Positions 59,804 through 59,932 of a stretch of 64,000 bases of DNA are shown here, in pieces. Position numbers and translations under genes: made by a program. The stretch's first letter is position 1. The number at the start of each line of letters is the position of its first letter. Source of the stretch: Verrucomicrobiota bacterium (GTDB lineage Bacteria > Verrucomicrobiota > Verrucomicrobiia > Limisphaerales > UBA1412). The stretch spans positions 76,395-140,394 of the forward strand of contig JALNXY010000001.1 of NCBI GenBank assembly GCA_023230105.1. The letters run 5' to 3'. The notes below the pieces were generated by a model. It was not told where the DNA came from. It saw nothing but the letters and a program-made list of their open reading frames with translations, and did no database searches.

Positions 59804-59932
59804 ATGAAAAATATTATCGACAGAGTCCATTTCCCTGCCCTGGACAAATGGCTAAGCAGAGGCCACATCGAAGAACGTGGTGGATTCAATCTCCGTGGTT
59901 TTGTGAATGATGATTCAGTGAATAAACAGTGA
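59804..59932 (+). pseudogene. Rhs core-end stub ([42 protein letters not shown])
   Basis: Position-for-position match to the Rhs core end [37 protein letters not shown] with decayed residues. GC-rich patch between AT-rich cassettes. Stops before any toxin domain. Confidence 0.75.

Follow-up and report, generated by a model that had tools for sequence, protein, structure and literature searches.

Classic orphan rhs loci are strings of units that each comprise a core 3' fragment, a variable toxin and an immunity gene; the variable parts are low in GC and homology between units ends at the core/toxin boundary. Polymorphic toxin systems are also said to include polyimmunity loci, reportedly described by Zhang and colleagues in 2012 as tandem immunity genes. 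Orphan rhs C-terminal fragments have been explained by C-terminal displacement (Jackson et al. 2009; Koskiniemi et al. 2014, both as cited in PMC5361080). In Vibrio cholerae, orphan immunity arrays associated with the T6SS arise from sequential effector displacement (Kirchberger et al. 2017, PMC5361080), and Bacteroidales carry acquired interbacterial defence clusters known as AID-1 and rAID-1 (Ross et al., bioRxiv 10.1101/471110).

The window, by which we mean the whole 64-kb stretch of verrucomicrobial DNA analysed here, carries low-GC arrays designated A to D (Table 1); loci from other assemblies are given L numbers and individual proteins P numbers. The DNA belongs to an uncultured, Limisphaerales-like Verrucomicrobiota MAG (locus tags M0Q48_); an Akkermansia origin, first assumed because of GC content and the literature, was rejected on exact-sequence matches, the close relatives being labelled Limisphaerales and Verrucomicrobiae. 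Array D consists of seven co-directional ORFs, hereafter cassettes, all of which have signal-peptide, lipoprotein or transmembrane (TM) N-termini, and its block from 59.3 to 64.0 kb has a GC content of 33-41% in a genome of 53-59%. An oxidoreductase-type gene pair, thioredoxin and similar genes lie upstream. The array ends at about 63982 and is followed by GC-rich repeats and then by opposite-strand housekeeping genes, as seen in L001, a metagenome contig that is 99.93% identical over the overlap and reaches beyond the window end. No full-length rhs gene flanks array D on either side, in the window or in L001. A separate low-GC island at 43194-45911 (+) encodes a 905-aa MmeI-family type IIL restriction-modification enzyme, to which all five MmeI Pfam domains match strongly. 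Lodged between the cassettes of array D are three short pieces of sequence, stubs 1 to 3. They are very probably non-functional fossils of orphan rhs modules, in an array that is now free of toxins and keeps its immunity-type genes.

Table 1. Positions of arrays, cassettes, core relics and shared elements (window coordinates unless a locus label is given).
Feature	Positions	Strand	Remarks
Array A	3264-6450	-	Low GC; leader 6262-6450
Array B	15965-17600	+	Low GC; leader 15965-16197
Array C	33256-34404	-	Low GC; leader 34083-34404
Array D	58908-63982	+	Low GC; leader 59064-59236; genes M0Q48_00540-00570
Cassette 1	59308-59802	+	164 aa, lipoprotein-type signal (LSGC), no Pfam family; cluster of 8 at 90% identity
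Cassette 2	59952-60635	+	227 aa, two N-terminal TM helices; immunity-position gene
Cassette 3	60731-61276	+	181 aa, signal-anchored, immunity-type
Cassette 4	61424-61948	+	174 aa, signal-anchored
Cassette 5	62127-62531	+	134 aa, signal-anchored; ATG overlaps stop of stub 3 frame
Cassettes 6 and 7	62781-63982	+	104 aa and 291 aa; last array D genes
Stub 1	59804-59932	+	42-codon ORF; two core blocks fused, about 75 intervening codons deleted; 72-78% over about 97 nt to intact cores, longest perfect run 15 nt (blastn/alignment)
Stub 1, piece a	59804-59839	+	Relic of the core block containing VHFPA
Stub 1, piece b	59840-59932	+	Core-end relic, ending in VNKW, then TGA at the Asp position of WDxLGL
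Stub 2	60642-60725	+	Core-end relic only (27 aa read), no start codon; 76-81% over 64-80 nt to intact cores, longest perfect run 14 nt
Stub 3	about 61980-62106	+	5'-edge relic of an orphan module; joined to cassette 5 without a gap; 89-92% to L004, L007 and L011 cores, longest perfect run 18 nt
tblastn match, stub 1	59792-59926	+	E 1e-9
tblastn match, stub 2	60648-60722	+	E 6e-8
tblastn match, stub 3	62029-62106	+	E 6e-7
tblastn match, array A relic	5720-5553	-	E 8e-7
Array A relic	5553-5720	-	Core block broken after YYSP; TIGR03696 33.5 bits
Further array A relic	about 6233-6262	-	Core sequence
Array B relic	16620-16651	+	SGGVHFPA
Complete core-toxin-immunity module	L014 8952-10684
Complete core-CT-immunity unit	L004 1338-2721
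Complete core-CT-immunity unit	L007 9612-10508		Tail with Ntox16 domain
Terminal element (about 80 nt), internal copy	61314-61395	+	GC-rich hairpin
Terminal element, second internal copy	62570-62638	+	94% over 51 nt to 61314-61364
Terminal element, array C	33176-33096	-	After last cassette
Terminal element, other loci	L001 7259-7306 (array D end); L011 2159-2239; L012 6149-6232		After last cassette
Motif copies	3231-3251, 6411-6431, 7013-7033, 15555-15575, 32742-32762, 34227-34247	-
Motif copies	15886-15906, 16101-16121, 17800-17820, 58835-58855, 59064-59084	+
GC-rich nested-hairpin element	58908-59050, 15965-16092
GC-rich nested-hairpin element	34257-34404	-
GC-rich nested-hairpin element, inverted copy	L001 7455-7816		Downstream of array D

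The arrays share with classic orphan rhs loci the strings of core 3' fragment, toxin and immunity gene, the stop of homology at the core/toxin boundary and the low-GC variable parts. Unlike these loci, they are not located downstream of a full-length rhs gene, they begin with a conserved non-coding leader and they occupy four or more sites in 64 kb; in array D, moreover, the toxins are gone and only core scraps and immunity-type genes are left. Array D, which has no toxin, is therefore not a complete orphan rhs-CT/immunity module, whereas loci L014, L004 and L007 each hold one. Polyimmunity loci resemble the arrays in that their immunity genes stand in tandem, lack a full toxin next to them and are associated with toxin cassettes, but none of the seven array D cassettes matches a described immunity family (Pfam), and we know of no leader, terminal element or bracketing motif in the description of such loci. 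As in the V. cholerae arrays, immunity genes outlast the cognate effector, array content varies between strains and remnants mark past modules. The V. cholerae arrays, however, follow a live effector where a T6SS cluster has its 3' end, and here neither a live effector nor a secretion-system cluster adjoins an array; the V. cholerae remnants are effector 3' ends and not conserved Rhs core. With the AID-1 and rAID-1 clusters the arrays have in common co-directional low-GC orphan immunity genes, repeated intergenic sequences and pseudogenised remnants. They differ in belonging to another phylum and in involving Rhs toxins instead of Bacteroidales T6SS effectors, and neither the 5' XerD-like recombinase of rAID-1 nor the mobile elements that carry AID-1 were seen near them.

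Examined against the definition of rAID-1, array D has more than the two co-directional low-GC downstream genes required (seven ORFs), and Pfam searches of its flanks detected no XerD-like tyrosine recombinase at the 5' end. The same kind of search returned no recombinase match in the tested flanks of arrays A to D, and no recombinase, transposase, mobile-element or secretion-system gene was found within 8-10 kb of the arrays, including the Pfam lists of L001, L004, L005 and L013-L017. As regards integrons, no integrase was found at array D, the DNA between cassettes is heterogeneous (core relics, the 80-nt element or a few nucleotides) and a comparison of repeats revealed no imperfect palindrome shared between the array D cassettes. 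Judged from its sequence, array D behaves like an orphan immunity array and is not a functional Rhs C-terminus, a complete orphan module, an rAID-1 cluster or an integron.

The assignment of the stubs to the Rhs core rests on several alignments. Only four significant matches were obtained in the 64-kb window when two intact verrucomicrobial Rhs cores were used in tblastn, all of them within low-GC arrays (Table 1). The two cores belong to distant intact Rhs genes of Oceaniferula and of an Akkermansiaceae MAG, retrieved by a GTDB genome scan with a stub alignment as query; these genes are not the parents of the stubs and served as references only. When the window relics were joined in core order, the resulting query recovered 35 proteins, all of them short (67-210 aa) Rhs C-terminal fragments, and every window relic maps block by block onto their consensus (..YDGWNL.., followed by a variable tail). 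Core matches at the DNA level were found in six other loci (blastn). Stubs 1 and 2 align with the last 30 or so residues of intact cores, which agrees with the original prediction that both represent the very end of the core. Re-translation of 59804-59932, 60642-60725 and 62020-62130 also gave exactly the peptides listed there. Placement at the core end and linkage to rhs sequence, the two points on which that prediction depended, were thus both found.

In profile searches, stub 1 aligns with positions 36-69 of the 76 of NCBIfam TIGR03696 (Rhs_assc_core) at 13.7 bits (E 0.07), below the cut-off of 32.5 bits, stubs 2 and 3 give no match to this profile, and the array A relic passes the cut-off by one bit. 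The low score of stub 1 and the absence of any Pfam match for the stub peptides could be taken to mean that the resemblance to Rhs is a chance product of AT-rich DNA, or that the stubs belong to an unrelated repeat element. Against this stand tblastn E-values of 1e-9 to 8e-7 confined to the arrays, the block-by-block correspondence with 35 fragments of the lineage and the DNA-level core matches in six other loci. By these comparisons such a reading, to which we would have given next to no chance, is refuted.

The anatomy of stub 1 is that of a core with its middle removed. Piece a is identical at 16 of 17 nt to the core sequence GGAGTCCATTTCCCGGC in L007 and L011, and the block to which it corresponds is found in every intact core of the lineage in the consensus alignment. 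The ATG of the ORF is an internal Met of the core; the stub adjoins the stop of cassette 1 and ends 19 nt upstream of cassette 2. Stub 2 starts 6 nt past the stop of cassette 2, and both stubs are followed by separate ORFs with signal or TM N-termini. Comparison with intact relatives locates the stop codon of each stub at the Asp of WDxLGL, and the two do stop just before the cleavage boundary as had been proposed. The loss of key residues was likewise borne out against the lineage consensus: the conserved Asp-Pro (SRDPIEE) has changed from DP to GH in stub 1 and from DP to DT in stub 2, a Pro to Thr change, and Tyr is replaced by Arg or Cys. The stubs therefore differ from a functional Rhs C-terminus in missing the TIGR03696 cut-off and in having lost both the boundary motif (PxxxxDPxGL type) and the conserved Asp-Pro; nor does any reading frame connect them to an upstream YD-repeat shell or a downstream toxin domain.

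Stubs 1 and 2 are related to each other as well as to the core. Positions 59847-59947 and 60640-60740 are 82% identical in an ungapped comparison of 101 nt, with a perfect run of 20 nt (59896-59915 and 60689-60708), and blastn aligns the two stubs at 88.75% over 80 nt (E about 1e-24). The shared repeat of about 75 nt announced earlier does exist, although to call it near-identical was slightly generous at 89% over 80 nt. A one-base frameshift shared by both stubs after the W/Q codon was considered and discarded, as beyond about 9 nt the similarity is no better than expected for AT-rich DNA. Both stubs end between the Trp and the Asp of WDxLGL, which is tidier than random deletions predict; this junction may have arisen once and then been copied.

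Stub 3 corresponds to a different part of the module. It reads ..NITAGMGPPATYLKYL, undergoes a +1 frameshift and continues for 25 aa, with a deletion of 10 codons; its counterpart is the module edge ..TAG.G.PATYLKYLYDGWNL..SYTWGLD..QGAGG, which is intact in L004, and the protein P0110 is a homologue without the frameshift. Its description as a more N-terminal core block was correct, but the limits of 62020-62130 assigned to it were not, since the relic begins some 40 nt earlier, ends at about 62106 and is frameshifted.

Core relics are not restricted to array D. Over 155 nt, the larger array A relic is 92-93% identical in DNA to intact cores and includes a perfect run of 39 nt. The array B relic retains a perfect match of 25-29 nt to intact cores and is 91% identical over 68 nt to the L011 orthologue of the array, which keeps a 20-aa stretch of core where the relic lies. 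The trace at 16635-16651, previously dismissed as weak, is on these two grounds a genuine relic. Certain breaks recur: the core is interrupted after VHFPA both in stub 1 (59837-59842) and in the array B relic (16645-16651), and between YYSPA and LGRW on the right side of stub 1, on the left side of the array A relic (5553-5560, -) and in the L014 ORF 15270-16094. Such recurring core breakpoints may reflect a deletion hot spot or shared ancestry.

What the stubs once belonged to can be read from related loci that still hold complete modules. In L014, from a Limisphaerales MAG (GCA_050949405.1), the leader is followed by a 344-aa orphan Rhs protein (core plus a 170-aa tail), a gap of 14 nt and a 227-aa ORF. 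Window positions 59932-60641, that is cassette 2 with its immediate flanks, are 96.1% identical over 710 nt to L014 9982-10690. By this match to the ORF 14 nt downstream of the L014 orphan Rhs gene, cassette 2 sits where a toxin module has its immunity gene. The orthologous module of L014 has a toxin before its cassette 2 homologue; array D has therefore lost the toxin and retained the gene in the immunity position. L004 is the orthologue of the 3' end of array D, with the same downstream glycosyltransferase and TPR genes, and the Ntox16 toxin domain of the L007 unit scores 33.7 bits against a Pfam cut-off of 25. In L017, the homologue of cassette 3 opens the array C orthologue and is fused to the leader; it keeps only the last 20 or so nucleotides of stub 2 and the stop codon of the stub is gone too. 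The presence of the same junction between stub end and cassette 3 in the L017 array C orthologue indicates that this junction is old and moves as a unit.

The cassettes and the stubs have not been preserved in the same way. Cassettes 2 and 3, with dN/dS values of 0.37 and 0.13, are under purifying selection; by contrast, the stubs have acquired stops, a frameshift and internal deletions and have lost conserved residues. Pfam searches with all seven array D cassettes returned no significant family, and of the five also compared with NCBIfam none scores above cut-off. From gene position, in synteny with the L014 toxin, we infer an immunity role for the array D cassettes.

These observations can be accommodated in the following scheme. 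Across this lineage, the arrays at several chromosomal sites are built of repeated units, each made of the last 170-300 or so core codons, a variable C-terminal toxin and an immunity gene. Array D has shed essentially all its toxin-coding DNA, presumably by deletions, and core scraps of 25-45 codons are left right before immunity-type genes: stub 1 precedes cassette 2, stub 2 cassette 3 and stub 3 cassette 5. The stubs themselves would be inert. The working parts would be the cassette proteins, which are exported or anchored in the membrane and whose genes are presumably transcribed from the shared leader; most likely these proteins would neutralise Rhs toxins delivered by related strains that still carry the matching toxins.

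The origin of stub 1 is less direct. Its identity to the L014 core is 75%, against 96% (dS 0.067) for the neighbouring cassette 2, so that a recent deletion in an L014-like module does not by itself account for stub 1. On sequence grounds it would either come from a divergent core type, of which the GGFNL-type fragments P0082 and P0119 are the nearest examples, or have been spared a homogenisation that keeps the other fragments 85-95% alike. In the databases, the best full-length Rhs protein matching the core end is 71% identical over 144 aa (P0131, 1932 aa), and all closer matches are 170-466 aa long. Either the main genes have escaped assembly or short forms are normal in this lineage. A similar size distribution is seen for the YD-repeat part, of about 300 aa, of a 576-aa fragment encoded at L014 10788-12518: its best 120 database relatives are all of 541 aa or less, and many of them begin at the same point, MTTAK.YDKLNRL.

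That stubs 1 and 2 are inactivated core-end relics and not toxin genes is supported by their alignment to intact cores and by the toxin-bearing orthologous module of L014. The original prediction had left a choice between relics and recombination handles. If stubs were kept as homology handles, recombination between two stubs, or between a stub and an intact core, would shuffle, delete or install cassettes. Such a role fits the similarity between stubs 1 and 2, which match at 89% over 80 nt and have a perfect run of 20 nt in common, as well as the recurrence of the stub 2 end with cassette 3 in another array (array C locus of L017), the variation of array content at the same loci between strains and the perfect matches of 25-39 nt that the array A and B relics retain to intact cores. 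RecA-type recombination, however, requires a minimal segment of about 20-30 nt, and the intact cores recovered all match stubs 1 and 2 at just 72-81% identity, no perfect run being longer than 15 nt. As no toxin follows the stubs, their joining to an rhs gene would yield a toxin-less, out-of-frame fusion; furthermore, the L017 junction lies inside the stub, which fits an illegitimate deletion and not a defined site. We consider the handle proposal improbable; with perfect runs this short and no toxin following, the fossil reading suits stubs 1 and 2 best.

Another reading would make stub 1 a genuine small gene, or an upstream ORF whose translation is coupled to that of the immunity gene, because a gene caller annotated the 42-aa protein in L001 and the ORF ends near the next start codon. 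Yet its cluster at 90% has a single member, and a word-indexed homologue search with an alignment of the two stubs recovered nothing beyond the 42-aa ORF. A start codon is missing from stub 2, and in L017 the copy of the stub 2 end lacks even the stop codon. Descent from the core explains the sequence fully, and coding by stub 1 in its own right is scarcely credible.

Read as fossils, the stubs alone are ordinary pseudogene scars; the arrays differ from a collection of such scars by a shared architecture of leader and terminal element. The leader, of about 170 nt and always in the orientation of the cassettes, is common to arrays A to D and to eight loci from other assemblies. A leader pattern search yielded seven more metagenome loci which, together with L014 and L017, extend the close alignment across at least 12 loci. 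In several loci the leader runs at a fixed junction into Rhs core sequence. In array D it starts with the 20-nt motif ATCTGCGNNATCTGCGGTTA, and a second copy of this motif is present at 58835-58855. An inverted repeat, CACAAT-N14-ATTGTG, is contained in the leader. Two interpretations of the leader were tried and rejected, namely a structured RNA (RNAalifold -3.6 kcal/mol, no convincing covariation) and diverged core coding sequence, for core homology is seen only from ..ACTAATGCTCTGGTGCGC (TNALVR) onward and scores upstream do not exceed those of shuffles. Rfam and tRNA scans of the window, leader included, returned nothing, and a scan of the + strand from 58900 to 59300 detected no sigma-70-type promoter in the leader.

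At the other end of several arrays, immediately after the last cassette, stands a terminal element of about 80 nt with a GC-rich hairpin (GGATGCGCCCC..GGGGCG). Two further copies are internal to array D, which suggests that this array is a concatenation of three sub-arrays. The motif ATCTGCGNNATCTGCGGTTA, made of three ATCTGCG heptads ending in GGTTA (20-21 nt), occurs 11 times in the window against 0.01 expected. All 11 sit at the edges of arrays, where directly oriented copies bracket each array, and the same bracketing is found in L001, L006, L007, L011, L014 and L017. The idea that the motif is specific to arrays was abandoned when further copies turned up among the phage structural genes of unrelated viral contigs of high GC content. 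A co-directional gene often follows the motif closely, and its occurrence in the viral contigs indicates that it is probably an intergenic or promoter-associated element of a general kind and not an array-specific site. A GC-rich element of about 150-200 nt with nested hairpins (CCGTAGG..CCTACGG, CCGCCTGAAGGGCGG) also precedes the leaders in arrays B, C and D, and other REP-like palindromes (CCCGGGGTCGCAGACCCCGGG, GGTATGCTCCGCATACC) are concentrated at the ends of arrays. Elsewhere in the window, extensive DNA repeats occur within and between two paralogous genes at 25180-25500 and 25834-26349 (+), which encode small lipoproteins with Ala/Lys-rich tandem repeats (..AAADTKAALNEAA..).

The leader-headed arrays could constitute a dedicated platform for Rhs toxin/immunity cassettes in Limisphaerales-like Verrucomicrobiota. 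A resident core fragment would capture incoming modules, the immunity genes would be expressed constitutively and the stubs would be scars of cassette turnover, in a recombinase-free Rhs analogue of rAID clusters or integrons. The features to which this proposal appeals are the fixed fusion of leader and core, the terminal element of about 80 nt, the end motifs and the several copies at conserved sites, together with the fact that neither a recombinase nor a full-length rhs partner of matching sequence was seen. We regard it as a speculative and rather unlikely extension of the fossil interpretation.

The stubs are diagnostic in that they reveal the anonymous low-GC ORF arrays of this genome to be descendants of Rhs toxin/immunity modules. 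The strain keeps the antidotes and has shed the poisons, which points to strain-level chemical warfare and to defensive hoarding of immunity in an uncultured lineage of anaerobic digesters and activated sludge. Directly testable toxin-immunity pairs are now available, for example the L014 toxin tail and cassette 2. If functional, the architecture of leader, terminal element and motif would provide a simple new model of how immunity islands are organised without a recombinase.
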